Shown: positions 115-17,293 of the stretch, piece by piece
Numbering within the stretch: the first letter of the stretch is position 1
Layout: every line of letters starts with the position of its first letter
Source of the DNA: Candidatus Jordarchaeales archaeon
GTDB taxonomy: Archaea > Asgardarchaeota > Jordiarchaeia > Jordiarchaeales > Freyrarchaeaceae
Assembly (NCBI GenBank): GCA_038858525.1
Contig: JAWCFL010000032.1
Location: 1-18,436 of the forward strand
Length of the DNA stretch: 18,436 bases
Direction of reading: 5' to 3'
The notes under the pieces: generated by a model
What the model was told of the DNA's origin: nothing
What the model saw: the letters and a program-made list of their open reading frames with translations, nothing else
Database searches by the model: none
Program-made: the position numbers and the translations under genes

Positions 115-117
115 GTG

Positions 118-337: not shown

Positions 338-358
338 TAGTTGAAAATAAGGTGGCGA

Positions 359-366: not shown

Positions 367-430
367 TTTTATGTGCACGGAAAACTATTTCTTAGTTATT
401 ACTTGAATTATAGTGACTGTTTTCTAGGGG

Positions 431-1522: not shown

Positions 1523-2069
1523 CCTTGCCATAAAATCGGTTCATTATATTGTTAAAAATTTTTAAAGCGCATTCTTTAGGGGAAAGCTTGTCGGACTCAA
1601 CTATAACGTCAGGGTTTTCAGGCTCCTCAAAGGGGACACCTAAACCTGGAACAGTTCGGCTTTCCCCCGACAAACCTTTTTCGTATATCTTTCTTGGTGC
1701 GCCATAAGTTTCTTTTCTCGTTGCCTCACGCCTCATGCAAACTTCTAATGGGCACTTGACGTAGACAAATAGAATATTTTCAATTTCTTTTCTTCCTTTT
1801 TCCCTGTAAGCCTTCCTGTTAGCAGTAGCATCAATTATGACGTTAATTCCGTTATCGTTAAGAAGACGGGCAATGAAAACCAGAACGCCATAAACAATCT
1901 CCCGCTCCTCCTCCGAGTATGTCGGATTAGGAGTTACGACTTTCCTGAGAAGGTCAGTTGAAAGAATCTGAGATTTAATATCACGCTCTGCCAGTAAACC
2001 TTGCAGCTCGCGAGCAATGGTGCTCTTTCCAGAGCCTGGCAGGCCGAAGAGCCAAACTGTCCAAGCCAA
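1509..2069 (-). CDS. APS-kinase-like P-loop kinase (CysC/COG0529-like)
   Basis: Walker A GLPGSGKST near the N-terminus, an IIDATANR core, and a C-terminal VPFEEPENPDVIV resembling the YE.PE.PE motif of adenylylsulfate kinases. TTG start preceded by GGAGGATTAGC. The 3' end overlaps the convergent gene by 14 bp. Confidence 0.55.
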   Translation of the reverse strand: MAWTVWLFGLPGSGKSTIARELQGLLAERDIKSQILSTDLLRKVVTPNPTYSEEEREIVYGVLVFIARLLNDNGINVIIDATANRKAYREKGRKEIENILFVYVKCPLEVCMRREATRKETYGAPRKIYEKGLSGESRTVPGLGVPFEEPENPDVIVESDKLSPKECALKIFNNIMNRFYGKVNYL

Positions 2070-2102
2070 AGCTAATCCTCCTTTTCAAACATAGGTTAAA
2101 CC

Positions 2103-2112
2103 TTTAAAAATA
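2103..2112. promoter_or_regulatory. Shared TATA-like element (TTTAAAAATA) in the divergent spacer between the P-loop kinase and prs
   Basis: It lies ~30 nt from the TTG start at 2069 and ~48 nt from the ATG at 2160. It overlaps the ATG at 2112, which argues against that upstream start for prs. Confidence 0.35.
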
Positions 2113-2159
2113 TGTCGCTTCATAAAAGAAAATGCGTCTACTTTAAAGAGGGAAAAAGA

Positions 2160-3053
2160 ATGAGGTTAGCAATAGTAGGGGGTTCTTTATCACAAGTCCT
2201 AGCACTTAAAGTTGCTAAAATGCTTCGAGCGCCGTTTATAGACTGCGAATATAAAAAGTTCCCCGATGGAGAAAAATACGTCCGAATAGATGGTGAAGTT
2301 GAGGGATATGAAGTTGCAGTAATACATTCAATGCACCACACTCCTGATGAATGTCTCGTGGAATATTTTCTCCTAGTAGACACCCTAAAGGATCTAGGAG
2401 CCAAGAAGGTAACTGGCGTAATCCCTTATTTTCCCTATGCAAGACAGGATGAGCGCTTCAATCAAGGTGAGGCATTGAGCCTCAAAACAGTAGCAAGCCT
2501 TATCGAAAAAGCGGGAACAGACAAAGTCATAACAATTGACATGCATTTACACCGAATAGAAAGCATAAATAAGATATTCAAAATACCGGCTGAAAACATC
2601 ACGGCAATACCTTTAATCGCGCAATACATTAAGGAAAACTTCAAAATCGACAAGCCACTTATAATAGGACCTGACGAAGAGGCGGAGCAATGGGCAAAAA
2701 CAATGGCAGCAATACTTGACGCGGACTACGATATCCTAGAAAAAAAGAGGATAAGCTCAACGGAAGTAGAAGTAACCCCGCGGCAACTCCAGCCGCAAAA
2801 CAGGAACGTAATCATAATAGACGATATAATTTCCACAGGAGGGACGCTCGCAAAAACTATTCAGCTACTTAAAAGTAAAGGCGCGAAAACAATAATTGCT
2901 GCATGTACACACCCAATATTAGTTGATAATGCACTCAAGAAAATATACAAAGCCGGAGCGGAAACAGTAATAGCTACAGATACTGTTCCTAGCCCAGTAA
3001 GCCAAGTTACAGTAGCTCCTCTCATAGCACAAACACTTAGTAGTAAAAGTTAA
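2160..3053 (+). CDS. prs: Ribose-phosphate pyrophosphokinase (PRPP synthetase)
   Basis: MRLAIVGG N-terminus, FPDGE, YFPYARQDERF and the PRPP-binding loop IIIDDIISTGGTL. I prefer ATG 2160 (GAGGG 7 nt upstream) over the track start 2112, giving 297 aa, typical for archaeal Prs. Confidence 0.9.
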   Translation: MRLAIVGGSLSQVLALKVAKMLRAPFIDCEYKKFPDGEKYVRIDGEVEGYEVAVIHSMHHTPDECLVEYFLLVDTLKDLGAKKVTGVIPYFPYARQDERFNQGEALSLKTVASLIEKAGTDKVITIDMHLHRIESINKIFKIPAENITAIPLIAQYIKENFKIDKPLIIGPDEEAEQWAKTMAAILDADYDILEKKRISSTEVEVTPRQLQPQNRNVIIIDDIISTGGTLAKTIQLLKSKGAKTIIAACTHPILVDNALKKIYKAGAETVIATDTVPSPVSQVTVAPLIAQTLSSKS

Positions 3054-3345
3054 AAAAGCTAAAAAGGGGTCACTAAAAAGAAATTAATACAAAGCGGAAT
3101 ATAATTTACTTTCCGTAAAACGGCAACACTACCAGAAATCTAAAAACATTTAATTAAAAAATAAGCAAAAATCTAAATGAAAAGTCATAAATTAATTGTT
3201 CTCAAAAAGCTTCATTCTTTATTTACATTATTCTCGCCGTTTTTATCCAAATATTAAATAAATTTCAAGAGCCAAAATTTAACAAGAGCTTAAGTTTAGC
3301 ATTCAAAAAGAAAAATTCTTTAAAAAAGACATTATTTGGTAATAA

Positions 3346-6021
3346 TTAACCTGTTGCTATACGCTTAGTGCGTCGTTCTATATAGTCGTCAATAATGGCA
3401 TCGATGTTAACGGCTTTTCCATTCCAACTCTTAGTTGGATCAGTTAGGTCTTCGCCATATTTGAACTGTATAATGCTTCCTGTTGAGTCTCTTACGGTAC
3501 CATCGTACTCTACTTTCACGTCTTGGAGGGCGTTGATTAGTCTGCGTTGTAAATATCCTGACTGTGATGTTTTGACTGCTGTGTCAACCAAACCTTCTCT
3601 TCCACCCATTGCATGGAAGAAAAATTCTATCGGGTCTAGTCCCTTTCTGTAATGCGCTGCTACAAATCCTCTTGACTTAGCGCTTAGGTCTCCTTTTTTA
3701 AAGTGTGGAAGAGTTCTCCCTTTATACCCTCTATGTATCCGTTGCCCTCTAACTGATTGTTGCCCTACGCATGCGGCCATCATTGCTAGGTTGAGAAGGG
3801 TGCCACGTGCTCCTGTTACTGCCATTATTACGGCGTGATTGTCTGGACCTAAATATTCACTGGCCACTTCGCCAGCCTTGTCTCTGACGTTGTTGAGTTC
3901 CTGCATTATTAGCATTTCAAGGCTTTCCTCTATCGTGCGCCCGGGTAGAGCCTCAAGTTCTCCTCTTCTATAGGTCTCTATTAATTCGTTAACTTTTTTC
4001 TCTCCTTCTTTTAATATTTCATTTATGCGCTGAACAGCCTCTTCGGGTATTTCTATGTCGTCTAAACCGAGGGTAAATCCCTTTTTAGTTATAAATCTGA
4101 TCAGCATACGTGTTACTGAGTCGATGAATTTCCTTGCCGCATCAGAGCCGAACTCCTTTGCTATTTTGTGGAGAAGGCTTTCAGGTACTCCTGCTCCGAA
4201 GGCGTTTTTGTCTATTACGCCTTTTTGAAGGACGCCGTCTACGACAACTACGTATGCGTCATGTGGACAATTCTCTTTAAGGCATACATCGCAATGTTTA
4301 CATGCCTTTGACTTGAAACGCGCGTTAAGCCCTTTAGGTAGGGTGAGGCTGAAGATCTGCTTCCCTGTCCAGAGGGGGGTTGGCTCTGTTATTGCTGGTG
4401 GAGGAAGTTCTGTTACACCGGCTGCGAGAGCCAGCTCACAGGCATCCTCCTTTTTGAGTAAAGTTTGCTCTTTAGTTAAAAGATAAGCAGCAGAAATGAA
4501 GTCTTGGATCCCGCCTATGATTGGCCCTCCATACCGTGGACTTAGAATATGTTCTTGGACTCTCATCAGTATGTAAGCTTCAACTCTGGCTTCCTCAGAC
4601 TGAGGCACATGGAGATTCATTTCATCTCCGTCAAAGTCAGCATTGTAGGGAGGGCAAACGCATAGGTTTAGTCTGAATGTTTTATATGGCATGACCCTGA
4701 CTTCATGAGCCATAATGCTCATTCTGTGGAGGGACGGTTGCCTGTTGAAGAGTACGATGTCTCCGTCATTGAGGTGACGTTCAACTATGCAGCCGGGGGT
4801 GAGGTCTTCAGCAACCTTGCTCCTGTTTTTGACGAATCTTAAATCGATGCGCCTACCGTCATTTCGGATAACGTAATTTGCTCCTGGATGTTCATCTGGG
4901 TCTCTCATAACTAGTTCTTTCATTTCTTCAATGTTAAGTTCAGTTACTCTTTCGGGTATAGTTAGGATTTTCGCTACTTCGATGGGGACACCTACCTCGT
5001 TTATTCCGATGTTCGGATCAGGGGATATTACTGTTCTAGCCGAGAAATCGACGCGTTTGCCTGAGAGGTTGCTTCTGAAGCGTCCTTCTTTGCCTTTCAA
5101 CCTCTGGGAAAGTGTTCTTAAAGCTCTGCCTGAACGGTGACGAGCGGGAGGTATGCCGGAGATTTCGTTATCAAAGTATGTAGTTACGTGATATTGAAGT
5201 AGCTCCCATAAGTCTTCGACGATAAGCTGGGGAGCGCCTGCTTCGATGTTTTCTCTTAAACGCTGATTTATTCGTATTATGTCGACGAGTTTATGTGTTA
5301 GATCATCTTCTGACCTAACACCGGACTCAAGTGTTATGCTTGGTCTAACACATACGGGGGGAACGGGAAGGACTGTAAGAACCATCCATTCAGGACGAGC
5401 ATACTTGGGATTTATACCGAGGAGCTTGCAATCTGTATCGGGTATGCGTTCACATCTTTCTCGTACATCGATTGGTGTAAGCCTTATAGAGCCAACTTCT
5501 GTTTCTTCGTAAAATGCGGTTGGTTTCTCTAGTCTTACCTTGCGTTGAGTTTCACCACAGTGAGGACAGGTTACAGTTCTGGACGCGCGGCGAAAAACTT
5601 CTTCAGCAACTTCGTCGCTTAGTTCGCCTGTTTCTGCTTCATGCTTCTCCATCTCTGCTAAGAAGAATTTTATTTCATCTTCTGGAAGTAGAAGTCTGTA
5701 GCAACGCCAACATGTAGCTCTTAAAACTTTATGAAGAATTTTAACAAAACCAACATGGATTACTGGACGGACGAGTTCAATGTGCCCGAAGTGTCCTATA
5801 CATTCACCTACAGGATTACCGCATAGTTTACAGCGACGTCCTGGCTCTACTGTTCCTAAGCGTTCATCCATCAGTCCTGTTTCTATTGGGGTACCGTCTT
5901 CATCATACGTATCTGGCGTGATTATTCGGGTGGCTGACATACGTCTTATTTCGTCTGGGGAAAGAACACTAAATCTTATTGAGTGAATCCTCTTGGTGAA
6001 CCTGAAAGTCACGCTACACAC
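3346..6021 (-). CDS. rpoA1: DNA-directed RNA polymerase subunit A' (N-terminal part of the split largest subunit)
   Basis: N-terminal zinc motif CKLCGNPVGECIGHFGHIEL, catalytic YNADFDGDEMNLH Mg loop, and a ~890-aa length typical of archaeal A'. The start is GTG 6021 or, more likely, GTG 6012 (GAGGTG 6 nt upstream). Confidence 0.95.
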   Translation of the reverse strand: MCSVTFRFTKRIHSIRFSVLSPDEIRRMSATRIITPDTYDEDGTPIETGLMDERLGTVEPGRRCKLCGNPVGECIGHFGHIELVRPVIHVGFVKILHKVLRATCWRCYRLLLPEDEIKFFLAEMEKHEAETGELSDEVAEEVFRRASRTVTCPHCGETQRKVRLEKPTAFYEETEVGSIRLTPIDVRERCERIPDTDCKLLGINPKYARPEWMVLTVLPVPPVCVRPSITLESGVRSEDDLTHKLVDIIRINQRLRENIEAGAPQLIVEDLWELLQYHVTTYFDNEISGIPPARHRSGRALRTLSQRLKGKEGRFRSNLSGKRVDFSARTVISPDPNIGINEVGVPIEVAKILTIPERVTELNIEEMKELVMRDPDEHPGANYVIRNDGRRIDLRFVKNRSKVAEDLTPGCIVERHLNDGDIVLFNRQPSLHRMSIMAHEVRVMPYKTFRLNLCVCPPYNADFDGDEMNLHVPQSEEARVEAYILMRVQEHILSPRYGGPIIGGIQDFISAAYLLTKEQTLLKKEDACELALAAGVTELPPPAITEPTPLWTGKQIFSLTLPKGLNARFKSKACKHCDVCLKENCPHDAYVVVVDGVLQKGVIDKNAFGAGVPESLLHKIAKEFGSDAARKFIDSVTRMLIRFITKKGFTLGLDDIEIPEEAVQRINEILKEGEKKVNELIETYRRGELEALPGRTIEESLEMLIMQELNNVRDKAGEVASEYLGPDNHAVIMAVTGARGTLLNLAMMAACVGQQSVRGQRIHRGYKGRTLPHFKKGDLSAKSRGFVAAHYRKGLDPIEFFFHAMGGREGLVDTAVKTSQSGYLQRRLINALQDVKVEYDGTVRDSTGSIIQFKYGEDLTDPTKSWNGKAVNIDAIIDDYIERRTKRIATG

Positions 6022-6068
6022 CTCAAAATTAAATGATAAAAGAGTCTTTATTACTAATTAAGGGGTGG

Positions 6069-6078
6069 AATTTAAATT
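6069..6078 (-). promoter_or_regulatory. TATA-like palindrome AATTTAAATT between the hisG stop and the rpoA1 start
   Basis: It lies 48-57 nt upstream of the candidate GTG starts, which suggests rpoA1 has its own promoter. Confidence 0.3.
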
Positions 6079-6092
6079 TTTCTTAGTGTCAG

Positions 6093-7067
6093 TCAGAGTT
6101 TATTTTGTATTTTTTCAAGGGCAAGAACTTGCCTTGGCTCGTAAACCACTAACCCTTGTGCTAGCTGTCTGAGGTGGGGTACTATTCTTAAAAACTCGTC
6201 TTTATGAATTACCGTATTGATGGCGTACCAACCTTCTTCTCCTGCAAGGGGAGATATTGTCGGCCTCTTAAGAGCGGGCAGTATTTTCAATATTGCTTGT
6301 AAGTTTTCCTCTTTTACGTTCATAAATATGTGAAGGCGATCCCTAGCGTCGACTGCTCCTTCGAGGAGAGTCATTACATCCTTTATTTTCTCCCGTTTCC
6401 AAGGGTGATTTAAGGCGTCCCTGTTAGATATGAGAACCGCTTGAGACTCGCATATCTCCTCGATTATTTTCAAGTTGTTAGAGAGGATGGTAGTTCCGGT
6501 TTCCGTGTTGTCTATTATTGCTTCAGCGTCTTCAGGTGGCTTGGCTTCTGTAGCTCCGAATGAGAGGAGTATTTTCACGTTGGGATTTTCTCCGTATCTA
6601 TACCAAGGTGTTATGACTTCAGGGGTTAATGAGCCAAAGCGAGTTCTATACTCGGAGTTCGCCATTATGCGGCGGAGTGAGAGATTTATGTATTCTGTCG
6701 CTATACGTATGGGTTTCCCTGCATTAGAAAAGAAACGTATCAAGTCTGAAAGAGAATTAATCTCAGTCCAGTAATTTGGCACAGCAAGGACAATTCTAAC
6801 TTTACCGTAAGCTAAACTCGATAAAGTTACGACGTCGGCCGAGGTTTCTTCTACCCAGTCCGCTCCTGTTATCCCTAAATCATGTGCTCCCGACTCGACG
6901 AGATTTGGTATTTCTTGTGGTCTGAGAACCTTCAAGTTTATCTCAGGGTCATTTATCCATGGCCTATAGGATCTTTCACTTCCTTTTACTTCATACCCTG
7001 CCTGCCTTAGTAAATTTAATGTTGCTTCTTGAAGAGAACCTTTAGGGATAACAAAGTTCAGCTTCAA
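6093..7067 (-). CDS. hisG: ATP phosphoribosyltransferase, long form with C-terminal regulatory domain
   Basis: N-terminal IPKGSL...LLRQAG and RPQEIP...DLGITGADW. The C-terminus LPALKRPTISPLAGEEGWYAINTVI matches the HisG regulatory domain (compare E. coli LPGAERPTILPLAG). Confidence 0.85.
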   Translation of the reverse strand: MKLNFVIPKGSLQEATLNLLRQAGYEVKGSERSYRPWINDPEINLKVLRPQEIPNLVESGAHDLGITGADWVEETSADVVTLSSLAYGKVRIVLAVPNYWTEINSLSDLIRFFSNAGKPIRIATEYINLSLRRIMANSEYRTRFGSLTPEVITPWYRYGENPNVKILLSFGATEAKPPEDAEAIIDNTETGTTILSNNLKIIEEICESQAVLISNRDALNHPWKREKIKDVMTLLEGAVDARDRLHIFMNVKEENLQAILKILPALKRPTISPLAGEEGWYAINTVIHKDEFLRIVPHLRQLAQGLVVYEPRQVLALEKIQNKL

Positions 7068-7083
7068 TTAAGCCCACCATTTT

Positions 7084-7117
7084 TAATTATGATTTGTTAC
7101 TAATTGTGATTTGTTAC
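7084..7117. repeat. Tandem 17-bp direct repeat (TAATTATGATTTGTTAC / TAATTGTGATTTGTTAC, 16/17 identical)
   Basis: Read directly from the sequence. It lies in the divergent hisG / Roadblock-like spacer, 17-50 bp upstream of the hisG start. Confidence 0.8.
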
Positions 7118-7147
7118 AAGTTCCTCTCGGAGAGAAGAGAGACAACT

Positions 7148-7157
7148 AAATTTAAAT
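7148..7157 (+). promoter_or_regulatory. TATA-like element AAATTTAAAT upstream of the Roadblock-like gene
   Basis: About 52 nt upstream of ATG 7209, with a GAAGGG SD-like motif in between. Confidence 0.3.
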
Positions 7158-7208
7158 GTTTGGGAATGAAGGAGTATAATGTTAAAGAAATTGAAGGGTT
7201 GATGATTA

Positions 7209-7628
7209 ATGTCTAAAGATAAGCTCTTGGCTTTAACTCAGATCTTGGAGAACATGAATAAAAAGGGAGGATTTTCGGCTAGTGTTATTTCGGGAGAGGA
7301 TGGATTGGTTGTAGCGGAAGCAAGCAGTTCTGGGAACAAACAAGTTATTGCAGCGATGGCTAGTCTAGCTCATTCGACTGCTATGAGAGTTAAAGACCAA
7401 ATAGGGCTTGGGGACTTAGAGCAGGTAACCATAGAGACAAGTGACGGGATCATAGTTTTTAAGAGTGTAGAAATCCCTAAGAGAAAATTTATACTAGCAG
7501 CCATATTACCCATCTCAGCCAAACGGAGATTTGCCGATGCAGCATCTGTTCTCCTATTTAAGGACAGAAGATATGAGCGAATAGTGGATGATGCAGTGGA
7601 GGAAGTAAAAGAAATATTCAAGGAATGA
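7209..7628 (+). CDS. Roadblock/LC7 (MglB-like) domain protein with a ~40-aa C-terminal extension
   Basis: The pattern GGFSASVISGEDGLVVAE...AAMASLAHSTAMRV...IGLGDLEQVTIETSDGIIVF...FILAAIL follows the Robl/LC7-MglB layout (G..gA.l...DGl.iA ... aAm.a ... lg.g .. v.ie...g). A profilin fold is not excluded by eye. Confidence 0.55.
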   Translation: MSKDKLLALTQILENMNKKGGFSASVISGEDGLVVAEASSSGNKQVIAAMASLAHSTAMRVKDQIGLGDLEQVTIETSDGIIVFKSVEIPKRKFILAAILPISAKRRFADAASVLLFKDRRYERIVDDAVEEVKEIFKE

Positions 7629-7944
7629 ATCTATTTTCATTTTTTGGAATAAAGGCCTTAATCGAGTATCAACTTCAAATATTTTTAAGTTTAGCTGAAT
7701 CAATGAAATTAAGAGGGACGTCATAGTCTTGAGGGCTGCTTTTAGTTTGCCGATAAACTTGTTTCATTGTTTCTGGTATTTGTTAGTGAATAAGGGAGGG
7801 TATCATTTTCATTTAGTTCGATGCTGAAGGCGTGATTTACTTAATTGTTTAAACTTTAGACATAAGCGAAATAGAATTCCTCCTTAAATGTTAGGAGACA
7901 TTTATTTAGTGGTAGCGGTAATTAATGAGAGAAAAGTTAGGAAG

Positions 7945-8601
7945 TTACTTGGAAAGTTGAGAACTAAAGAAGAGTTTCAAGGTGTTTATTACTTCCTTTG
8001 TGTTCTTGCCAAGAGAAAGACCTTCCGTTAAAAGGTCATTAAGATGATCTATGTCGATTTCAACTGTTGGAGACGAGTATACTTTAACGGGTATACCTCT
8101 CGCTTTAGAGCTGGAGACATGTTTCTTGAAACTGTCCTCTCCGAATTGTGGGGGAAGAATGCCTGGCGGCTTCATAAAAAGGGCATTGGTTCCGCCTGAT
8201 CTCGACTGAGAGATAACTATAACTTCTTGGTCTTGTTCACCTAACTCTACAATGTTCAATATGTCTTTAGGTTTAATGAAGGGTAAGTCTGCAGGTAAAA
8301 CAAGGACAGAATCCGCGTTACATCTAGTGCAGAAGTCTATTCCAAGTTGAATTGCCTTGTTTAAGTCGCATGGAAGACGTTCAAAAATAAAATTTACTCC
8401 TTTAAGAGAGTTTACAATGCTCAAATCAGGTGTTACAATATGGATCTCCTTAAATATCTCTGATCTTTTTGCGATACCAATCACGTCAAGAAGCATTGCA
8501 AAGCTTAGTTTACGCCGCTCACTTAGAGAAAGAAAGGGTGACAGCCTTGACTTCGCTGCATCTAACCCCTTAAAGGGAATTACCAGGTGAATATTGTTCA
8601 T
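7945..8601 (-). CDS. cofC: 2-phospho-L-lactate (or PEP) guanylyltransferase, F420 biosynthesis
   Basis: VIPFKGLDAAKSRLS N-terminus, MLLDV, VLPADLPF, GGTNALF and FGEDSFKKH, the typical CofC/FbiD motif order. Divergent from cofE. Confidence 0.8.
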   Translation of the reverse strand: MNNIHLVIPFKGLDAAKSRLSPFLSLSERRKLSFAMLLDVIGIAKRSEIFKEIHIVTPDLSIVNSLKGVNFIFERLPCDLNKAIQLGIDFCTRCNADSVLVLPADLPFIKPKDILNIVELGEQDQEVIVISQSRSGGTNALFMKPPGILPPQFGEDSFKKHVSSSKARGIPVKVYSSPTVEIDIDHLNDLLTEGLSLGKNTKEVINTLKLFFSSQLSK

Positions 8602-8783
8602 TCACATCATCTCCTACATTTGTAAAAAGTGTCTTTCGATGTGAAAGAAGCTACTATAATGAATACTTTGCTGGAGTTAAAAATGCATTATAATAAGGAG
8701 GAAGGATTCGTTTAGGGAGGAATTTTTTATTTAGGGTAACTTGATAAGCGACTATCGCGTCTTTCTGATTTGGAAATGGAACT

Positions 8784-9551
8784 TTGGAGGTGTCAGAGAT
8801 TAAGAAAATAGAAATAATAGGAATTAATGGTTTGCCTCTGGTGAGGGAAGGGGACGATATAGCTAAGCTGATCGTTGAAGCAGCAAGGAAACAGGGTATC
8901 GAAATACTTAACAACGACATTATTGTGGTGGCTCAATCTATAGTTTCTAAGGCTGAAGGTATGATTGTTGACCTGTCTAAGGTGGATCCTTCTCCTTTCT
9001 CGATTACAATAAGTAGGCAGGTTGGCAAATCTCCACAGATGGTCGAGGTTATTTTGAGGGAAGCTAGAAGAATAGTTAAAATGCGGCACGTCATTATCAC
9101 GGAAACGACGCATGGTTTTATCTGCGCCAATTCAGGAGTGGATGAATCCAACGTGTCAGGTGGAGGGAAAGTCACTCTTCTTCCTCGAGATCCTGATGAG
9201 TCTGCAAGACGCATTAGGGATGGAATTTTTAAACTTACGGGTGCAGATGTTGCAGTTATAATTTCAGATACTCATGGAAGACCCTTTAGAGAGGGGGCGA
9301 TAAATGTGGCCGTGGGGGTGGCGGGACTGAAACCGGTTTGGGATAGGCGTGGAGAAAAGGACTTGTACGGATATGTTTTGCATTCAACATTTGTTGCTGT
9401 GGCTGACGAATTAGCCTCAGCTGCAGAGTTAATTATGGGTCAAGCCGATGAGGGGATTCCAGTAGTCATTATACGAGGATACCAGTATATTAAAGGTGAG
9501 GGAAGTTACAAGGATCTTTTAATGCCTCCTGAAAGAGACCTTTTCAGGTGA
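8784..9551 (+). CDS. cofE: Coenzyme F420-0:L-glutamate ligase
   Basis: GLPLVREGDDIA, VVAQSIVSKAEG, CANSGVDESN, ISDTHGRPFREG..NVAVGVAG and MGQADEGIPVVIIRG. TTG start; GTG 8790 is an alternative. Confidence 0.85.
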   Translation: MEVSEIKKIEIIGINGLPLVREGDDIAKLIVEAARKQGIEILNNDIIVVAQSIVSKAEGMIVDLSKVDPSPFSITISRQVGKSPQMVEVILREARRIVKMRHVIITETTHGFICANSGVDESNVSGGGKVTLLPRDPDESARRIRDGIFKLTGADVAVIISDTHGRPFREGAINVAVGVAGLKPVWDRRGEKDLYGYVLHSTFVAVADELASAAELIMGQADEGIPVVIIRGYQYIKGEGSYKDLLMPPERDLFR

Positions 9552-10484
9552 GTGTCATTGATCACGCTGCTAACAGGGGGCACCGGTGGGCTGAAGCTAC
9601 TTAAAGGATTTCTTGAGGTTCTTCCCCAGGAGGAAATCGCCGTTATTGTGAATACGGGTGACGATATAGAGCTTCATGGGCTTTTTATAAGTCCAGATTT
9701 GGATAGTGCAGTTTATCTGGTTGCGGGATTGCTAGATGAAGAAAGATTTTGGGGCGTGAGGGGTGACACATTTAACTGCCTTGAGATGATGAGCAAGTAT
9801 GGTTTGCCCTCTTGGTTTGCTTTAGGGGATCGTGACTTAGCAACACATATATGGAGAACTTATCTTATCAGGAACGGTTTCCAACTTTCAGAGGTTACAA
9901 AACTTATGTGTGACAAGCTTAATGTTAAAGCGAGAATTATGCCTATGACGAACGATAAAGTGCAAACGTATATAGATACTGATTTAGGCGTTCTCTCATT
10001 GCAGGAATTTTGGGTTAAATACAGAGGACAACCAAGTGTTTTTGGGGTCGAATATAGAGGAGCCGAATATGCAAGTGCGCCCCCTGAGGTTATTGATGCC
10101 TTGAGGAAGTCTGAGGCGGTTATCGTGGGACCCAGCAATCCCATCACAAGCATAGCGCCCATATTAGCTATTAGGGACATAAAAGAGACCCTTAAAGAGA
10201 TAAGCTGCAAAAAAATTGCTGTTAGTCCTATAATAGGAGGAAGAGCGGTAAGCGGGCCAGCAGCGAAGCTAATGCAAAGCTTAGGCTTAGAGGTTTCCCC
10301 GCTAGGGGTGGCATGCTTCTACAAGGAGATAATAGACGTATTGGTACTCGACAGGACAGATGCTTCATTAGTGGATGTAATAAGGTCTGTTGGTGTTATA
10401 CCATATGCTACAAACATTTTAATGATGAACGATGAGGATAGACGACGTCTCGCTCTTGAAATTATAGAGCTGGTGAGTGAATGA
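9552..10484 (+). CDS. cofD: 2-phospho-L-lactate transferase (LPPG:FO transferase)
   Basis: LTGGTGGLKLLKGF, VIVNTGDDIELHGL.ISPDLD and GPSNPITSI. The GTG start directly abuts the cofE TGA stop (9549-9551). Confidence 0.85.
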   Translation: MSLITLLTGGTGGLKLLKGFLEVLPQEEIAVIVNTGDDIELHGLFISPDLDSAVYLVAGLLDEERFWGVRGDTFNCLEMMSKYGLPSWFALGDRDLATHIWRTYLIRNGFQLSEVTKLMCDKLNVKARIMPMTNDKVQTYIDTDLGVLSLQEFWVKYRGQPSVFGVEYRGAEYASAPPEVIDALRKSEAVIVGPSNPITSIAPILAIRDIKETLKEISCKKIAVSPIIGGRAVSGPAAKLMQSLGLEVSPLGVACFYKEIIDVLVLDRTDASLVDVIRSVGVIPYATNILMMNDEDRRRLALEIIELVSE

Positions 10485-11272
10485 GAACTATTTTGAAGCG
10501 GCGAGTTATACTTGCAGCTATGGCAGGAATATGTGATGGTGATTTTTGCTTCCGAGCAGCAAAATCAGGAGCAGGAATGGTGACACTTGGAGGGTTAAAT
10601 TTCGATGAAGGAACAGTTTTGGCTGGCGAAATGATAAGAAGAAGGGGGCGTAAGGAGTTTGATGTGAAGCTTGACTCGCTCGAGAGGTTTCTTAGGGAAG
10701 AGGTAAGTAAAGCTTTGAAGGGAGGCGCCCCTGTTGCTATTAATGTGCGGGCAGCAACTTTGAGGGGTATTCTTTTCGCTGGTAATTTAGTATCAAAAAG
10801 CGGGGCTACAGCACTGGAGATAGATGCGCACTGTCGGCAACCCGAGATGATGGCGGTAGGAGCGGGACAAGCACTTTTAAATAGATTAGAAACGCTTTCG
10901 GAGTGGATAATGTGTCTTAAGGAATCTTTTAATGTAAAAGTCATTCTTAAGTGGAGAGGTAACGTGGTGGATGATTTAACTGTAGCAAAGCTGGCTGAGA
11001 AAGCTGGTGCTGACGCAATACATATAGACGCTATGAAGCAAGGAGTGGAATGTGGAGATTTAGAGTTAATCAGGAAAATTTCTGAAAACGTAAATGTTTT
11101 CTTGATAGGTAATAACTCTGTTAGGGACGTTAATAGTGCCATCGAAATGTTAAATTCTGGTGCTGATGCAGTTTCTATTGCTCGAGCAACGCTAAATGAC
11201 CCTTCAGTAGTGGGAAAAATAGCGTTAGGTGTCGAAGAAAAAATGAAACAAAAAGAAAACTTAAAATTTTAG
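10481..11272 (+). CDS. Dus-like FMN-binding TIM-barrel oxidoreductase (archaeal NifR3/Dus-related family), function unknown
   Basis: LAAMAGICDGDFCFR..GAGMV matches the Dus N-terminus (aPMagvtD..fR). EIDAHCRQPE....GAGQALL matches the Dus IDiN.GCP....G.GaaLl segment, with the Cys retained. GADAIHID ... IGNNSV ... GADAVSIARATLNDPS matches the C-terminal half. Its ATG overlaps the cofD stop by 4 nt (ATGA). Confidence 0.65.
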   Translation: MRTILKRRVILAAMAGICDGDFCFRAAKSGAGMVTLGGLNFDEGTVLAGEMIRRRGRKEFDVKLDSLERFLREEVSKALKGGAPVAINVRAATLRGILFAGNLVSKSGATALEIDAHCRQPEMMAVGAGQALLNRLETLSEWIMCLKESFNVKVILKWRGNVVDDLTVAKLAEKAGADAIHIDAMKQGVECGDLELIRKISENVNVFLIGNNSVRDVNSAIEMLNSGADAVSIARATLNDPSVVGKIALGVEEKMKQKENLKF

Positions 11273-11309
11273 GCAAATATGGGGTGCAGAACGCTTTTTG
11301 ATTTGCAGT

Positions 11310-11744
11310 TTAGGAAGAATTATTTGTACTTTTCTTAGGCGTCATCGTACCGGATACTATCTTTGAGATTATTTCCTTTTGCGCCGCTCTTACTGCACTA
11401 GAAAAATTGAAACCACGAGTATCCATTCCCAGTTCATCGATGACGTCTCCGTAACTGTTCTCGTTTACTATTTTTATAAGAATTTCAGTAATGTCGTAAC
11501 GTTCTCCATGGAAACGCACCGTGATCTTATAAGCTTCCCAGTCAACTTCAGCACCATAAATGTCTCTTTGAATGTTTATTGCGTCCGCCACGGTCAATTT
11601 AGGATTAGAACTCAGTATTTCTTCAATTGAAGGTATTTTCACACCTTCAAGAGAAAGTAGGATACGCTGAATAAGCATACCCATAAGCCAGCAACGATTA
11701 AATCGGCCTTTCCAAGGCTTATTAGACAAACACCCACTTCCCAA
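11310..11744 (-). CDS. Hypothetical protein (124-144 aa depending on start)
   Basis: ORF of plausible composition, but I recognise no motif. Start options are TTG 11744 (~24 nt after an ATAAATAAAG box, possibly leaderless) or ATG 11684 (MGMLIQRILL...). Confidence 0.45.
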   Translation of the reverse strand: MGSGCLSNKPWKGRFNRCWLMGMLIQRILLSLEGVKIPSIEEILSSNPKLTVADAINIQRDIYGAEVDWEAYKITVRFHGERYDITEILIKIVNENSYGDVIDELGMDTRGFNFSSAVRAAQKEIISKIVSGTMTPKKSTNNSS

Positions 11745-11876
11745 AATTTGGCAAGCAACTTTATTTATCTTTTAACAGAAATATTAATTTTACTTTTCAT
11801 CAGAGTTGGTTACAAATGGAACGCATTGTAGCAAAGCAAAAAGAAGTGGTAAAGTTAGGTTTTCTCCTCTGTAAGT

Positions 11877-12056
11877 TTAAAAAATTCCGTTAAAAAGGTT
11901 GTTCAGGTAATTGATTATGTTTGTTGCTATACTTCCTGACCAGTTAAAAACGCCGAACATTATGTTTAGCATTATGGCTAAACCTAAAATTGATAGGCCA
12001 ATTAAGATGGCTTCTTCTACGATAGGAGATCCTTCCTCGTTCTTTATTAATTCCAA
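11877..12056 (-). CDS. Flp/Epd-type mini-pilin-like protein with a class III (type IV prepilin) signal peptide, 59 aa
   Basis: Hand translation: (TTG)ELIKNEEG|SPIVEEAILIGLSILGLAIMLNIMFGVFNWSGSIATNIINYLNNLFNGIF*. A short charged leader ends in Gly, Glu sits at +5 after the putative cleavage site, and a ~20-aa hydrophobic helix follows, mirroring Caulobacter PilA DESG|ATAIEYGLIVALIAVVIV. GGAGGG lies 8 nt upstream of the TTG. It is one codon below the 60-aa cut-off of the ORF track. Confidence 0.5.
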   Translation of the reverse strand: MELIKNEEGSPIVEEAILIGLSILGLAIMLNIMFGVFNWSGSIATNIINYLNNLFNGIF

Positions 12057-12307
12057 ATCAAAAACCCTCCATGTATCTTCAAGCGTTAATAGTTAAGAAA
12101 AATATTTAAACACCACAGTTGTTGCGGCGTACTATCATTTAACAAAATCATCAAGCTAAAATGAAAAAGACATATTTTTGTCAACTATATTGTTGATAAA
12201 AATGATGTTCAAAAAATTAAAATAGAAGTATAGCACAAATAATATTCTGAAAAATGGAAAAAGTTGAAGTAATTCTTGAAAAATGAAAATGAAGGGGACG
12301 TGGGAAA

Positions 12308-13453
12308 GTGACATATGAGGAAGAGATGATCGCTGCAAAGCCCCTTGTGTTGGATAATGGAACCGGGTTAACTAAGAACGGGTTTGCAGGAGAGGACCAA
12401 CCTCGCTCCGTATGGCCAACTTGTATAGGATATCCTAAGTATACATCAATAATGACGGACGTAGAACACCATACGAGGGAGTATTACATAGGGGAGGAAG
12501 CACTTAACCTGAGAGGAGTTCTTAGGCTGGTTTATCCTATAGAGCACGGCGTGGTGACAGACTGGGACGCCATGGAGAAGATTTGGCATTACACGTTCTT
12601 CAATGACTTGAGAGTAGATCCCTCAGAGCACCCTATTCTCCTAACTGAGCCACCGTTAAACCCGCGTGAAAACAGAGAAAAAATGGCTGAAATAATGTTT
12701 GAAACGTTTAACGCGCCAGCTGTTTATGTTGCAATGCAAGCAGTCCTTTCACTTTATGCGTCAGGAAGAACAACCGGACTTGTAGTAGACTCAGGAGATG
12801 GAGTAACGCACATTGTGCCAATTTACGAAGGATTCGCGTTAACGCATGCGATAACGAGGATAGATCTCGCAGGAAGAGACATAACTGAGTATTTAAGGAG
12901 GCTCTTAAGGCAACGAGGTTACAGTTTCGTCTCAACAGCTGAAAAAGAAATAGTTAGAGACATAAAGGAGAAGCTCTGTTATGTGGCTTTAGACCCTGAA
13001 AAGGAACTTAAGCTTGCTGAGAAAGTTTCAGGAATAGAAAAGACATACGTGTTGCCAGACGGAGAGACCATTACTGTCGGCGCTGAAAGATTCCTAGCAC
13101 CGGAGGTTTTCTTTAACCCAGGAGTTATCGGGCTAGACTCACCACCACTGGACGAGGTTATAGTTGACGCTGTCAGAAAATGCGACGTTGACTTAAGAAG
13201 AGAGCTTTACGGCAACATAGTTCTCTCGGGAGGATCAACAATGTTTCCGGGGCTAAGAGAAAGATTGCACAAGGAGTTATCAGAGCTCGTCCCAGAAAAT
13301 GTCGAAATTAAGATAATAGCGCCTCCAGAAAGACAGTACAGTGTTTGGATTGGAGGGTCAATACTAGCTTCTCTAAGAACATTCCAGAAAATGTGGGTTA
13401 CAAGAAAGGAATATCAAGAAGGAGGAGCTGCAGTTATTCACAGATGCTTCTAA
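12308..13453 (+). CDS. Eukaryote-type actin (Asgard 'lokiactin'-like)
   Basis: Near-verbatim actin signatures run the full length: [115 protein letters not shown]...[53 protein letters not shown] and [33 protein letters not shown]...IHRCF*. The start is GTG 12308 or ATG 12326. Confidence 0.93.
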
Positions 13454-13454
13454 G

Positions 13455-13480
13455 TTTTGTACTTTCCTTTTCCTTTTTTA
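13455..13480 (+). terminator. T-tract terminator region after actin (TTTT ... TTTTTT)
   Basis: Oligo-T runs sit immediately downstream of the TAA stop. Archaeal RNA polymerase terminates at such tracts. Confidence 0.4.
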
Positions 13481-13606
13481 TGATTACATTTTCTTGCGAG
13501 ACTTACTAAAGATAATATAAAGGAGAATGTTTGCGAATTAGGACGAAACACGTAAGGTTTTTCTTAAATTCTCTGGAAGATATCTCTCAAAAAGTGCAAA
13601 GGATTT

Positions 13607-15229
13607 TTGGGTGATTTTTTGGTTAAGGCTTTAAAAGAGTATAATTTAGTTAGAAAAAATCACCGTAAAGTAGATTTAAAATTTGCACTTTGTTATCCTA
13701 GTACATATTCTGTTGGTATGTCTTCTTTGGGGTTTCGTTTAATTTACACACTTATAAATATAAGGGAGAATGTCGCGTGTGAGAGGGTTTTCTATGTTCC
13801 AGAAGAGAGACCTAGAAGCGTTGAGTCTGGCTTAGAGTTAAGTGAGTTTGACGTAGTTGGTTTCTCTTTACAATACGAGGAAGATTACGTGAACTTAGTG
13901 AAAATGCTTCTTAGTTCAGGGATACCCGTCTGGAGAAGTGAAAGAGACGAGAAAAACCCATTAATTGTCGCAGGAGGAGTGTGTGCAATCGAAAATCCAA
14001 TGCCATTATCAGACTTCATTGATGTATTCTTAATAGGAGATGGGGAAGCATTAATAGAACAACTAATAGATATATGTGTTGAGGAGAGAGGGAAACACGC
14101 ACGGATGGAGGCTTTATCAAAAATAGACGGCTTTTATGTGCCTGGGTTAAATGATGGGAAAGTTAAGAGAGTATGGTGTAAATCCATTGAGGACATTTTT
14201 TGTCCAACTATGCAGGTAATTCCAGTTAAAGAAGAAAAAGGACTTACACCCGTTTTTGGCCGGTCATTCCTTTTAGAGATCGCTAGGGGGTGCGAGAGGG
14301 GATGCAGATTTTGTCTGATAGGTTTCTGCGGCAGGCCTAGACGTATTAGAAGCGAAAGAAGACTTAGACAGCTTATGGAAGAAGGAATAAAGCAAAGTGG
14401 GGTAAGAAAGGTTACTCTGATTGCACCTTCAATTTCAGGATTAAAAATAGTTGATTTATGTTGGGAAGCAGTAAATGCCGGCTTAGAAATTTCATTGCCT
14501 TCTTTAAGTATTGATGCTGTCACCGATGATTTGCTTGATGCAATAGTAGAAGGAGGACAACGAACAGTTACTATAGCTCCAGAGGCAGGAACAGAAAACA
14601 TGAGAATAAAGATAAACAAGCCTTTTTCGGACGAGGAAATAATCGCTACGGCAGAGAAAATAGAGGAACGAGGACTTAGCCTGAAAGCGTATTTCATTAT
14701 TGGGCTTCCTTATGAAAAAGAAGAGGATGTGGACGCCATTGCTAAACTTATCGATAGAATATCCAAAAGTGGTGGGAGGAAGTTAAAGGTTAGCGTAAAC
14801 CCGTTTGTCCCAAAGCCTCATACACCTTTTTCCTGGGTGCCTCAAAATTCACTTCAAACTCTTAGATATAAAAGGGCACGAATACAAAAACTCCTGAGAG
14901 GTAAGAGGATTAATCTTGAAGGAATGGATCTAAGAAAAGCATTTATTGAGGCATTTTTGTCTTTGGGGGGAAGCGAAATAAGTCGTATAATAGAGTTGGC
15001 GGCACGTTATGGTGGAGGACTTGGTGGCTGGAGGAGAGCGTTCAAGGAGAGCAAATTCAAAGCGGAGCACATATATAAGTTTAGGAGCCCTGATGAAGAG
15101 CAACCTTGGGAGATAGTTGATGTAGGTGTTAACAAACAGTTTTTAATTAAAGAGTGGGAAAGAGCCATTGATGGCGTCCAGACGCCTCCTTACAGTCACT
15201 GTAAAGAATGCATGATTTGCGACTACTAA
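13607..15229 (+). CDS. Radical SAM enzyme with an N-terminal B12-binding-like domain (TIGR03960-like uncharacterised family)
   Basis: CX3CX2C cluster motif in LLEIARGCERGCRFCLIGF. The N-terminus ALCYPSTYSVGMSSLGFRLIYTLIN....CERVF resembles the YevGMSnlGl.iLY..lN...cERvF signature of that family. The start is TTG 13607 or TTG 13619. Confidence 0.75.
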   Translation: MGDFLVKALKEYNLVRKNHRKVDLKFALCYPSTYSVGMSSLGFRLIYTLINIRENVACERVFYVPEERPRSVESGLELSEFDVVGFSLQYEEDYVNLVKMLLSSGIPVWRSERDEKNPLIVAGGVCAIENPMPLSDFIDVFLIGDGEALIEQLIDICVEERGKHARMEALSKIDGFYVPGLNDGKVKRVWCKSIEDIFCPTMQVIPVKEEKGLTPVFGRSFLLEIARGCERGCRFCLIGFCGRPRRIRSERRLRQLMEEGIKQSGVRKVTLIAPSISGLKIVDLCWEAVNAGLEISLPSLSIDAVTDDLLDAIVEGGQRTVTIAPEAGTENMRIKINKPFSDEEIIATAEKIEERGLSLKAYFIIGLPYEKEEDVDAIAKLIDRISKSGGRKLKVSVNPFVPKPHTPFSWVPQNSLQTLRYKRARIQKLLRGKRINLEGMDLRKAFIEAFLSLGGSEISRIIELAARYGGGLGGWRRAFKESKFKAEHIYKFRSPDEEQPWEIVDVGVNKQFLIKEWERAIDGVQTPPYSHCKECMICDY

Positions 15230-15367
15230 AAAGATTAAAAACTCAAAAATTAAATAAATAGAAGAAAAATAAACAAAATATTAATTTTTTAAAAAATAAA
15301 GATGATAAAACCTAATTTTTAAATTCGGCTTCGGAAAAAAGATTTACAGAAGACGAAGAGGCGTTTA

Positions 15368-15688
15368 GTGATGGAATATGACAAGAAAAGGTTTAGAGAG
15401 GAATTTCCTCATCTTGCAAAGGAACTTGAAGACGTGGAGGGAGTAAGGGTTCAGATAAGAGGCGTTAGAACTTGTGAAATTAAAGACATAGATGTTGTCA
15501 GGTTGATTCGAAGATGTGACAGAGAAGAGCAAGCGATAGAGATTATAGAATATTTAAAAAAGAGAGGAGAAATTTCTGAAGAATATGCTTCACAGATACT
15601 TAAACAGCTTAAAGAGAAAGGATTAAGATCTTTTGGAAGCAAGATTTCGTGGGGATTCTTTGAAAAAGAATATAGGAATAATTTCTAG
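15368..15688 (+). CDS. Small conserved archaeal protein of unknown function (possibly DUF2095-like)
   Basis: The 105-106-aa ORF has an FPHLAKEL ... VRLIRRCDREEQAIEIIEYLKKRGEISEEYA ... GLRSFG pattern that I recall from uncharacterised archaeal proteins. The family name is from memory only. ATG 15371 is the likely start. Confidence 0.5.
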   Translation: MMEYDKKRFREEFPHLAKELEDVEGVRVQIRGVRTCEIKDIDVVRLIRRCDREEQAIEIIEYLKKRGEISEEYASQILKQLKEKGLRSFGSKISWGFFEKEYRNNF

Positions 15689-15775
15689 AGTCATAGTCTT
15701 AAAAGAGGAATTCGCTTTCAATGAATTTTTAAAGGATTATTTTGATGATTTTCGTTCTTTCTGGGGGGAACTTAA

Positions 15776-16978
15776 ATGTTAATAGGAATAGTGGGAAAGC
15801 CTAATTCGGGGAAGACCACGTTCCTCAATGCTGCGAGCGGAGCCAAGTATAAAGTTGCAGATTACCCATTTACAACTATAGAGCCGCAGCCAGGAACAGG
15901 ATATGTAAGAGTAAAATGTGTATGTGGTGAATTGGGAGTAAAAGACGACCCACAAAACTCAATATGTGTGAGAGGTAATCGATTTATTCCGGTGAATTTA
16001 TTGGACGTAGCTGGGCTGGTTCCCGATGCGTGGAGGGGGAGAGGGCTTGGAAATCAGTTTCTCGATAACCTTAGGAGGGCCGATGTACTAGTTCATGTAG
16101 TTGACGCTTCAGGTAGCACTGATGCTGAGGGAAAAATTCTGGAAGCAGGTTCATGGGACCCTGTAAGGGACATAGAATTTCTTGAAAAAGAAGTAGCTAT
16201 GTGGTTCAAACAAATAATAGTGAGGGACTGGCAAAAAACGGTTAGGCAAGTTGAGGCGGGTGTCAAAACGTTAGAGGAGAGTCTTACAGAAAAACTTGCA
16301 GGTCTTGCTATAAAGCGTTCGCATGTAAAGGCGGCAATCAAACTATGCAATTTTGATCCTTCTAAGCCAAGCAAGTGGAGCGATGACGAGTTATACGTCT
16401 TTGCTCACCAGTTAAGAAAGATAGCAAAACCGATTGTGATTTGTCTAAACAAGGTGGACAAGAAAGCTGCCAGGATAAACGTTGAGCGACTTAAAAAGCA
16501 AAACATTGATTTTGTGCCCGCTAGTGCGCTCGCTGAGCAGTTCCTAAGAAAGCTTGCAGAAGAAAAAATAATAGAGTACCTTCCAGGTGATGGCGACTTC
16601 AAACTGGTTTCACAGAAAATAACTGAAAAACAGAGGGAAACATTAGAAAAAATAAGGGAAGAAATACTCCGCGTATATGGTTCAACAGGGGTTCAGGAAA
16701 CGTTAAACAAAGCGGTCTTTGAAACTCTAGGAATGATAACAGTTTATCCTGTGGAGGACATCAACAAGCTTACAGACCATAAAGGACATGTTTTACCCGA
16801 TGCGCTACTAGTTCCAAGAGGAACAACTGTGAAGGAGCTCGCATACATGATTCATACTGAGCTAGGAGAAACATTTATCTATGCTTTAGATGCAAAAACC
16901 AAGCAACGCCTCCCGGAAGATTACGAATTGAAAGATAAAACTATAATTAAGATTGTTTCAGCTAAAGGATTAAGGTAG
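15776..16978 (+). CDS. Obg/YchF-superfamily GTPase of the Ygr210 type with a C-terminal TGS-like domain
   Basis: G1 GKPNSGKTT, YPFTTIEP (G2), DVAGLV (G3), NKVD (G4), an inserted helical region and a C-terminal ITVYPVED...LLVPRGTTVKELAYMIHTELGETF beta-grasp. Confidence 0.8.
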   Translation: MLIGIVGKPNSGKTTFLNAASGAKYKVADYPFTTIEPQPGTGYVRVKCVCGELGVKDDPQNSICVRGNRFIPVNLLDVAGLVPDAWRGRGLGNQFLDNLRRADVLVHVVDASGSTDAEGKILEAGSWDPVRDIEFLEKEVAMWFKQIIVRDWQKTVRQVEAGVKTLEESLTEKLAGLAIKRSHVKAAIKLCNFDPSKPSKWSDDELYVFAHQLRKIAKPIVICLNKVDKKAARINVERLKKQNIDFVPASALAEQFLRKLAEEKIIEYLPGDGDFKLVSQKITEKQRETLEKIREEILRVYGSTGVQETLNKAVFETLGMITVYPVEDINKLTDHKGHVLPDALLVPRGTTVKELAYMIHTELGETFIYALDAKTKQRLPEDYELKDKTIIKIVSAKGLR

Positions 16979-16989
16979 GGCGGGGAAAC

Positions 16990-17157
16990 GTGCGAAAAGA
17001 ATGTCCAAAATGTAGAGGAAAGGGAAAAGTTGAATGTTCTGAGTGCGGAGGGAGGGGAAAGTATGACCCCTATAGCGGGCTCGTATGCAGGACGTGCTGG
17101 GGGACAGGACGTATAATGTGTGATTACTGTGATGGTGAAGGGACTGTAGTAGAGTAG
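16990..17157 (+). CDS. DnaJ-type cysteine-rich zinc-finger mini-protein (four CxxCxGxG repeats), 55 aa
   Basis: Hand translation: (GTG)RKECPKCRGKGKVECSECGGRGKYDPYSGLVCRTCWGTGRIMCDYCDGEGTVVE*. It has four perfect CxxCxGxG units. The start is 12 nt after the GTPase stop, with a G-rich SD-like GGTAGGGCGGGG upstream. It is below the 60-aa track cut-off. Confidence 0.75.
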   Translation: MRKECPKCRGKGKVECSECGGRGKYDPYSGLVCRTCWGTGRIMCDYCDGEGTVVE

Positions 17158-17293
17158 CATGTAACAAGTTAAAGTATCGTCTAAGTTTTTATAGAAAGGG
17201 GAAATAGGCTTCCTGAAGCAAAAATGCAACACCGCAGTAATCTTTTTAATAGGATAGTAATCATGGGTTTGTCGAAGTTAGTTGGGGGTAAAA

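Follow-up and report, generated by a model that had tools for sequence, protein, structure and literature searches.

An 18,436-nucleotide stretch of Asgard archaeal DNA (Candidatus Jordarchaeales archaeon, GenBank assembly GCA_038858525.1, contig JAWCFL010000032.1, positions 1 to 18,436 of the forward strand), referred to in full as the window, carries the coenzyme F420 biosynthesis genes cofC, cofE and cofD and, directly behind cofD, a gene for a flavin-type triosephosphate isomerase (TIM) barrel protein that we designate X. X belongs to the MJ0144 family, which is listed as 'archaeal Dus', i.e., as a group of tRNA-dihydrouridine synthases. A complementary pattern of gene occurrence makes X a strong and testable candidate for the reduction step of archaeal F420 biosynthesis. 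We consider a reductase function of X in the biosynthesis of the F420 side chain likely, irrespective of the substrate. In the best explanation, X stands in functionally for the nitroreductase (NTR)-fold C-terminal domain of FbiB without being homologous to it. As regards the substrate, the chances appear about even that X reduces the enolpyruvyl C=C bond of dehydro-F420-0 in a reaction dependent on flavin mononucleotide (FMN).

The origin of the lactyl-phosphate linker of F420 in archaea has been an open question for about 25 years, during which a lactate kinase, CofB, was postulated but never found. FbiB's C-terminal domain has been experimentally shown to be a dehydro-F420-0 reductase, and in the same work Bashiri et al. 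proposed that archaea possess a counterpart yet to be discovered, 'CofX', while cofE neighbourhoods were screened for NTR folds only (PMC6450877). This revision of the pathway in 2019 left the archaeal reductase unidentified, and the use of phosphoenolpyruvate (PEP) versus 2-phospho-L-lactate was later disputed. X provides a specific gene with which the question of lactyl origin becomes directly testable, as it is present in all 151 Methanobacteriota genomes analyzed and in haloarchaea and is mutually exclusive with NTR in Asgard archaea. New here are the Asgard census with the strict exclusivity of X and fused as well as stand-alone FbiB-type NTR at the same locus, the coupling of cofD and X in haloarchaea and the identification of lineages with neither enzyme.

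X is coupled to cofD in three archaeal phyla

In the window, both gene junctions noted in the original prediction were confirmed in the sequence. The cofE stop codon TGA (9549-9551) is immediately followed by the GTG start of cofD at 9552, and the ATG of X overlaps the cofD stop in an ATGA tetranucleotide. Searching 185,579 species genomes yielded 80 loci with X, in which cof genes were located by tblastn. At all nine Asgard loci from public genomes (Jordarchaeia, Freyarchaeia, Borrarchaeota, Sifarchaeum and 'Promethearchaeota'), cofD lies directly upstream of X, mostly in the order cofE-cofD-X-cofC, which places X between cofD and cofC in most of them. Among 201 Asgard genomes with a completeness of at least 80%, 42 of the 43 copies of X reside on the same strand 50-100 bp downstream of cofD, and these stem from eight GTDB families. 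A Methanofastidiosia locus also has the order cofD-X. In the Halobacteriota sample, X directly follows cofD in at least 28 large genomes with high GC content. At two haloarchaeal loci (L121 and L122, 70% GC) the cofD stop overlaps or abuts the X start, and the closest relatives of the encoded proteins are from Halobacterium, Natronomonas and Haloarcula, where they are annotated as 'tRNA-dihydrouridine synthase'. About 27 Methanobacteriaceae loci exhibit cofE-cofD, one further gene and then X; in Methanobacterium oryzae the gene order is purO-cofE-cofD-arfA-X-atwA, with the gene for methanogenesis marker 9 slightly further along. The adjacency of cofD and X is far beyond chance and recurs in three archaeal phyla. 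The clustering with cof genes that the original prediction had put forward as a test is hence conserved across archaea, in Asgard archaea and haloarchaea, in Methanofastidiosia (cofD-X) and in Methanobacteriales (cofE-cofD-arfA-X).

The gene arfA, encoding GTP cyclohydrolase IIa/III, sits directly upstream of X not only in Methanobacteriaceae but also in five Methanococcales-like genomes. Together with the restriction of X to cofD-positive genomes, this neighbourhood would be compatible with a function elsewhere in deazaflavin or flavin metabolism, either in the ArfA branch, which feeds both FO and riboflavin, with one of its pyrimidine intermediates as substrate, or in repair or salvage of F420. 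We regard such a function as highly unlikely: riboflavin synthesis needs the ArfA branch in all archaea, but none of the cofD-negative genomes searched contains X; the known reduction in this branch is already served by its own enzyme, ArfC; and the mutual exclusion of X and FbiB-type NTR described below would be left unexplained.

X and FbiB-type nitroreductases exclude each other in Asgard archaea

The 201 Asgard genomes were queried with TIGR00736, cofD, the two-domain FbiB model and a stand-alone NTR protein, and X was called at 117 bits or more. While cofD was detected in 137 of the genomes, X was present in 43 of these, and all 64 cofD-negative genomes lacked it. FbiB-type NTR was found in 72 genomes, 69 of which are cofD-positive. 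The family best matched by the Asgard NTR is TIGR03553, the FbiB C-terminal domain, with 136 bits versus 73 bits for BluB. In one large Asgard family, CofE and the NTR form a fusion protein (about 470 aa) whose gene adjoins cofD, which fits a remark by Bashiri et al. on Lokiarchaeum (PMC6450877). In five other families, a stand-alone NTR (about 205 aa) is encoded immediately upstream of cofD, giving the gene order NTR-cofD-cofC. The cofD-positive genomes thus fall into 43 with X only, 69 with NTR only, 25 with neither and not a single one with both; note that Fisher p-values for X versus NTR overstate this pattern, as related genomes are not independent. Several of the 25 genomes with neither gene belong to families that otherwise possess X or NTR, and here assembly gaps are probably responsible. 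The genome from which the window stems is 92.7% complete, contains cofG and cofH and yielded no FbiB-like NTR with the stand-alone NTR protein as query.

The statement in the original prediction that archaeal CofE lacks the reductase domain holds for the window, where cofE is a single-domain gene that aligns with the two-domain FbiB model NF009810 over model positions 10-243 of 449 only. It does not hold for archaea as a whole, given that many Asgard genomes encode an NTR, whether as a fusion with CofE or on its own. In a CofD tree, all Asgard CofDs form one clade, in which the NTR-linked proteins are a supported subclade with the X-linked ones branching beside it. The X-linked and NTR-linked CofDs are therefore close relatives, which fits an unchanged CofD product. 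Since X is coupled to cofD, occurs only in F420 producers and takes the slot next to cofD only where NTR is missing, non-orthologous displacement is the most economical explanation. The earlier idea of a flavin ene-reductase acting as non-orthologous replacement is accordingly supported by synteny, phyletic pattern and exclusivity with NTR; as regards the substrate, both dehydro-F420-0 and PEP are candidates.

Outside the Asgard archaea, X is present in each of the 151 Methanobacteriota genomes and in 142 of 201 Halobacteriota genomes, 197 of which contain cofD. The cofD-positive Halobacteriota without X comprise Archaeoglobus profundus (G281), Methanophagales (ANME-1; G278), some metagenome-assembled genomes assigned to 'Methanocellales' and others. 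No FbiB-type NTR was detected in these X-negative Halobacteriota, the best score being 78 bits, and the complementarity of X and NTR is consequently shown only within Asgard archaea.

X is a barrel-only relative of dihydrouridine synthases

The best NCBIfam match of X is TIGR00736 ('MJ0144 family RNA dihydrouridine synthase-like protein') with 200.5 bits (E 2.8e-59). The match is full length (profile positions 1-226 of 231), and the curated cut-off of this model, which is built on methanogen sequences, lies at 218.7 bits. Scores for Asgard members range from 117 to 243 bits, most of them slightly below the cut-off. The Pfam family PF01207 (Dus) is matched with 55.3 bits at a threshold of 20.4 and over profile positions 54-235 of 311 only. 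Profile hidden Markov models (HMMs) of both families thus recognize X as Dus-like, in agreement with the original prediction, and the Dus-type motifs quoted there, AAMAGICDGDFCFR, EIDAHCRQPE...GAGQALL and SIARATLNDP, are present. X shares 40-57% identity with family members of methanogens and of other Asgard archaea, and its nearest relatives stem from Jordarchaeia and Freyarchaeia. Family representatives comprise 240-270 residues, or about 350-390 when a marker 9 domain is attached C-terminally.

Alignments of 15 and 59 members revealed that X-type proteins are very conserved. Invariant are R55, E59, F60, N88, R90, E113, H117, C118, Q120, E122, K157, D183, N211-N212-S213 and R235, such that the active site is rich in invariant arginine and lysine. 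Within the 59 members, H117, C118 and Q120 are strictly and R119 nearly invariant, the same is true for K157 and R159, respectively, which make up the retained KxR motif, and H181 and D183 show full or almost full conservation. X itself contains both HIDAM and EIDAHCRQ. The loop with Cys118 aligns to NMGCPAKKV of DusB (6ei9), and Cys118 occupies the position of the catalytic cysteine in the NxGCP motif of Dus enzymes.

The AlphaFold (AF2) model of X is an eight-stranded TIM barrel (predicted local distance difference test, pLDDT, 95.3; predicted template modelling score, pTM, 0.93) that ends in a single C-terminal helix (residues 242-262); the helical tRNA-binding domain, which comes after the barrel in all characterized Dus enzymes, is absent from the model. 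Foldseek neighbours are DusB, DusC, Thermus thermophilus Dus, dihydroorotate dehydrogenase B (DHODB), dihydropyrimidine dehydrogenase (DPD), Old Yellow Enzyme (OYE) and FabK, all of them flavin-dependent C=C reductases, with TM-scores of 0.65-0.73 at about 20% identity. X is predicted to bind FMN. A search of solved structures returned none for any member of the MJ0144 family. Scans with Pfam and NCBIfam profiles gave no NTR-family match in X, and as the predicted fold is a TIM barrel, any likeness to the FbiB C-terminal domain is functional only.

The obvious alternative is that X acts as an archaeal tRNA (or rRNA) dihydrouridine synthase and that its position behind cofD is functionally meaningless. 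The score above the Pfam gathering threshold, the retention of the catalytic cysteine and of KxR, and the fact that, among solved structures, DusB and DusC come closest in both sequence and fold all fit this possibility. X is also the sole Dus-like protein of its genome; a second Dus match there proved to be PyrD. Kasprzak et al. defined the group as 'archaeal Dus' in 2012, noting the replacement of NxGCP by N-x-H-C-K/R and of HxR by HxD (PMC3674756), and a Dus paper from 2022 still lists MJ0144 (Q57608) as the archaeal representative (PMC9775027). The label appears to have been assigned by homology, and we found no experiment on any MJ0144-family member in the literature. Given the altered NxGCP and HxR motifs and the missing C-terminal helical domain, this assignment looks doubtful. 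Moreover, for a housekeeping tRNA enzyme one would expect neither a position behind cofD in three phyla nor absence from all 64 cofD-negative and all 69 NTR-bearing (FbiB-type) Asgard genomes, and 157 of the 201 Asgard genomes contain no Dus-family match at E<=1e-10 at all. We thus consider a role of X as Dus highly improbable. The original prediction had named a tRNA Dus placed here by chance as its null hypothesis, and this is contradicted by the conserved cofD-X synteny, the restriction of X to cofD-positive genomes, its strict exclusivity with NTR and the lack of the tRNA-binding domain.

Proposed reaction and choice of substrate

If X reduces dehydro-F420-0, CofC would activate PEP with GTP and CofD would transfer the enolpyruvyl-phosphate moiety onto FO, yielding dehydro-F420-0. 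X, produced in step with CofD by virtue of the ATGA overlap, would then deliver a hydride from its reduced FMN to the methylene carbon, Cys118 would protonate C2, and the resulting F420-0 would be glutamylated by CofE.

The electrons for this reaction may come from different sources. In Methanosarcinales and Methanoperedens, X is C-terminally fused to a cysteine-rich marker 9 domain with eight invariant cysteines, and the AF2 model of the Methanosarcina fusion protein is confident and forms a single body (pLDDT 92.6, pTM 0.92). Among the best 150 representatives in a library of 1.84 billion proteins, marker 9 fusions are the sole fusions of X seen. In methanogens, X is probably supplied with electrons through this cysteine-rich partner. 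Marker 9 proper is absent from the genome of the window, where only a 42-bit match to half of the domain was obtained, and X of Asgard archaea and haloarchaea therefore presumably uses NAD(P)H, as do Dus enzymes. The half-domain match lies in a 189-aa open reading frame (ORF; G000:C3:108695-109264, i.e., L086:5696-6265 on the plus strand) that combines a C-x5-CC-x5-C stretch, corresponding to the second half of methanogenesis marker 9, with a C-terminal zinc ribbon. It adjoins ESCRT-I-like genes (Vps28, UEV/Vps23, EAP30) and not cof genes; the encoded protein could be a partner of X or unrelated to it.

Several observations weigh against dehydro-F420-0 as the substrate or against X as a general reductase. 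Hasan et al. 2022 reported that archaeal CofC/CofD pairs are highly specific for 2-phospho-L-lactate and concluded that the archaeal pathway starts from this compound and not from PEP (PMC8764529). Should this be true, dehydro-F420-0 would not arise in methanogens, all of which carry X. In Methanosarcinales and Methanoperedens, X resides away from cof genes, and in none of the 150 representatives mentioned above was X fused to CofC, CofD or CofE. The TIGR00736 score of X falls just short of the curated cut-off. Switches between X and NTR are few, though they occurred between close CofD relatives. Archaeoglobus, ANME-1 and about 20 Asgard genomes contain neither enzyme, which indicates that the step can be bypassed or performed otherwise. 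Finally, the activity proposed for the MJ0144 family is deduced from sequence, genomic context and a structural model.

The main rival explanation keeps X within F420 biosynthesis but places it before CofC rather than after CofD: X could reduce PEP to 2-phospho-L-lactate, which would then be used by CofC and CofD. X would in this case supply the very metabolite assigned to the postulated lactate kinase CofB. Synteny, co-occurrence and exclusivity with NTR fit this proposal equally well, because formation of 2-phospho-L-lactate from PEP would also make NTR needless. The preference of archaeal CofC/CofD pairs for 2-phospho-L-lactate in vitro, by which this compound has been reinstated as the probable start of the archaeal pathway (PMC8764529), and the fact that a lactate kinase gene was never identified (PMC6450877, PMC8498797) speak in its favour. 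So do the location of X between cofD and cofC at most Asgard loci and the invariant Arg/Lys-rich site (R55, R57, R90, R119, K157, R159, R235), which suits a small tri-anionic substrate. On the other hand, a one-for-one exchange with the FbiB-type NTR next to related CofDs on both sides is most simply explained by the same reaction on the same substrate. X is also tightly coupled to cofD, the gene for the enzyme that forms dehydro-F420-0 or F420-0, and not to cofC. In addition, extracts of methanogens reportedly phosphorylate lactate with GTP (Graupner and White in 2001), which would provide a different origin for 2-phospho-L-lactate. We see PEP reduction as a serious though rather unlikely alternative to the reduction of dehydro-F420-0.

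Genomes with neither enzyme

As Archaeoglobus and ANME-1 possess cofD but neither X nor FbiB-type NTR, a third route must exist and X is not the universal archaeal solution. Two candidates for a third analogue were considered. An ORF of about 305 aa lies immediately upstream of cofD in two genomes of the Asgard family f14 (L093:6949-7866 on the minus strand and L101:5025-5945 on the plus strand), both with neither X nor NTR. It gave no Pfam or NCBIfam match and is possibly the analogue in question. The second candidate, an M24 peptidase, is encoded by a gene that overlaps or abuts cofD in Archaeoglobus-like genomes (L105, L106, L107, L116), and a longer, PepQ-like M24 gene follows cofC in two Asgard families (L089, f4; L095, f17). 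This candidate was rejected, since the Archaeoglobus-like and Asgard copies fall into different subfamilies; with two M24 genes per genome, the Archaeoglobus copy is probably a housekeeping methionine aminopeptidase.

Paralogues of F420 enzymes were also seen. CofE-like ligases are present in 194 of the 201 Asgard genomes, among them members of families in which cofD is mostly missing (for example, all 49 genomes of family f7, only seven of which have cofD), where they probably glutamylate another cofactor. Two genomes of family f16 (G020 and G031) contain five CofD-like genes each, one canonical and adjoining X, the other four scoring 180-200 bits and thus below the cut-off.

Organization of the window

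The gene arrangement is summarized in Table 1. In line with the original prediction, cofC is divergent from cofE-cofD-X, all ORFs were found where predicted, and the three cof genes score well above the curated cut-offs of their HMMs. The AT-rich region separating cofC from cofE presumably harbours the promoters of both units. In related Jordarchaeia and Freyarchaeia, the order is cofE-cofD-X-cofC on one strand; the inverted cofC upstream of cofE in the window is a local rearrangement.

Table 1 Features of the F420 locus in the window.
Feature	Position	Strand	Evidence
cofC (2-phospho-L-lactate / PEP guanylyltransferase), oriented away from the cofE operon	7945..8601	-	TIGR03552 160.6 bits (cut-off 105), PF01983 118.5 bits
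AT-rich spacer between the divergent genes cofC and cofE	8602..8783	.	read from sequence
cofE (F420-0:gamma-glutamyl ligase), single-domain, without NTR domain	8784..9551	+	TIGR01916 308.4 bits
cofD (2-phospho-L-lactate / enolpyruvyl transferase), GTG start	9552..10484	+	TIGR01819 352.1 bits
ATGA, start codon of X overlapping the cofD stop TGA (translational coupling)	10481..10484	+	sequence and ORF table
X, 263-aa FMN-type TIM-barrel protein, MJ0144 / 'archaeal Dus' family, candidate F420 side-chain enolpyruvyl reductase	10481..11272	+	
Active-site loop D-A-H-C-R-Q of X, residues 115-120	10823..10840	+	Cys118 codon 10832-10834

The window also encodes a full-length eukaryote-type actin (12308-13453, plus strand; Pfam Actin 468 bits), a Roadblock/LC7 protein (7209-7628, plus strand) and RpoA', which mark it as DNA of an Asgard archaeon. 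Actin and Roadblock/LC7 proteins are typical Asgard eukaryotic signature proteins, and their genes adjoin the F420 operon here. Downstream of the actin gene, at 13607-15229 on the plus strand, lies a gene for a B12-binding radical SAM protein of the uncharacterized TIGR03960 family (365 bits, below the cut-off).

Implications

In its widest form, our proposal is that the whole MJ0144 family does not modify RNA but, in methanogens, haloarchaea and some of the Asgard archaea, produces the lactyl portion of F420; at the furthest, its members would be PEP reductases forming 2-phospho-L-lactate, with marker 9 as the electron-input subunit in methanogens. We put this forward tentatively and consider it unlikely to be correct in every part. 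We found no paper tying the MJ0144 family to F420 in the open-access literature, and one in a subscription journal is possible. If the proposal is true, an entire protein subfamily would have to be re-annotated, probably along with methanogenesis marker 9, and it would become doubtful that most archaea possess any Dus. In the case of PEP reduction, the lactate kinase CofB, which was never found, would be needless. Furthermore, a compact barrel enzyme for heterologous F420 production would be at hand.

Comparison with known systems

Within the MJ0144 family, X shares the [ND]-A-H-C-R-Q loop, the H-x-D motif and the barrel-only length of about 250 aa with the other members, and differs by an aspartate instead of asparagine at the first loop position and by its score below the family cut-off. 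A role in tRNA modification has been ascribed to this family on the grounds of homology. With the bacterial and eukaryotic Dus enzymes (DusA/B/C, Dus1-4), X has the FMN-type TIM barrel, the catalytic cysteine loop and KxR in common, and Dus chemistry is likewise the reduction of a C=C bond, in this case conjugated to a carbonyl group. However, identity is about 20% and the TM-score about 0.66 (e.g., with E. coli DusB, 6ei9), and Dus structures of 305-320 residues align to X only over the barrel. The NxGCP and HxR motifs of Dus are replaced by xAHCRQ and HxD in X, and its genomic context is F420 biosynthesis and not translation.

The FbiB C-terminal domain (TIGR03553) of mycobacteria and its Asgard homologues would perform the same reaction as that proposed for X, the FMN-dependent reduction of dehydro-F420-0, and FbiB-type NTR shares the niche next to cofD with X in a complementary distribution. 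The two are not similar in sequence and have unrelated folds, an alpha+beta NTR dimer in the former and a TIM barrel in the latter, and activity has been established experimentally for FbiB, whereas that of X is predicted. Class 1 dihydroorotate dehydrogenases (DHODH), DPD and OYE are also FMN-containing TIM barrels that act on a C=C bond beside a carboxylate or carbonyl group with a cysteine (or tyrosine) as acid. They resemble X with TM-scores of 0.7-0.73 at 14-21% identity; X is shorter, and its arginine-rich loops (RGRxEF, HCRQ) are specific to the X family. The classic precedent for the proposed chemistry is MurB, the UDP-N-acetylenolpyruvylglucosamine reductase, a flavoenzyme that converts an enolpyruvyl ether into a lactyl ether; it contains flavin adenine dinucleotide, differs in fold and substrate and is not homologous to X.

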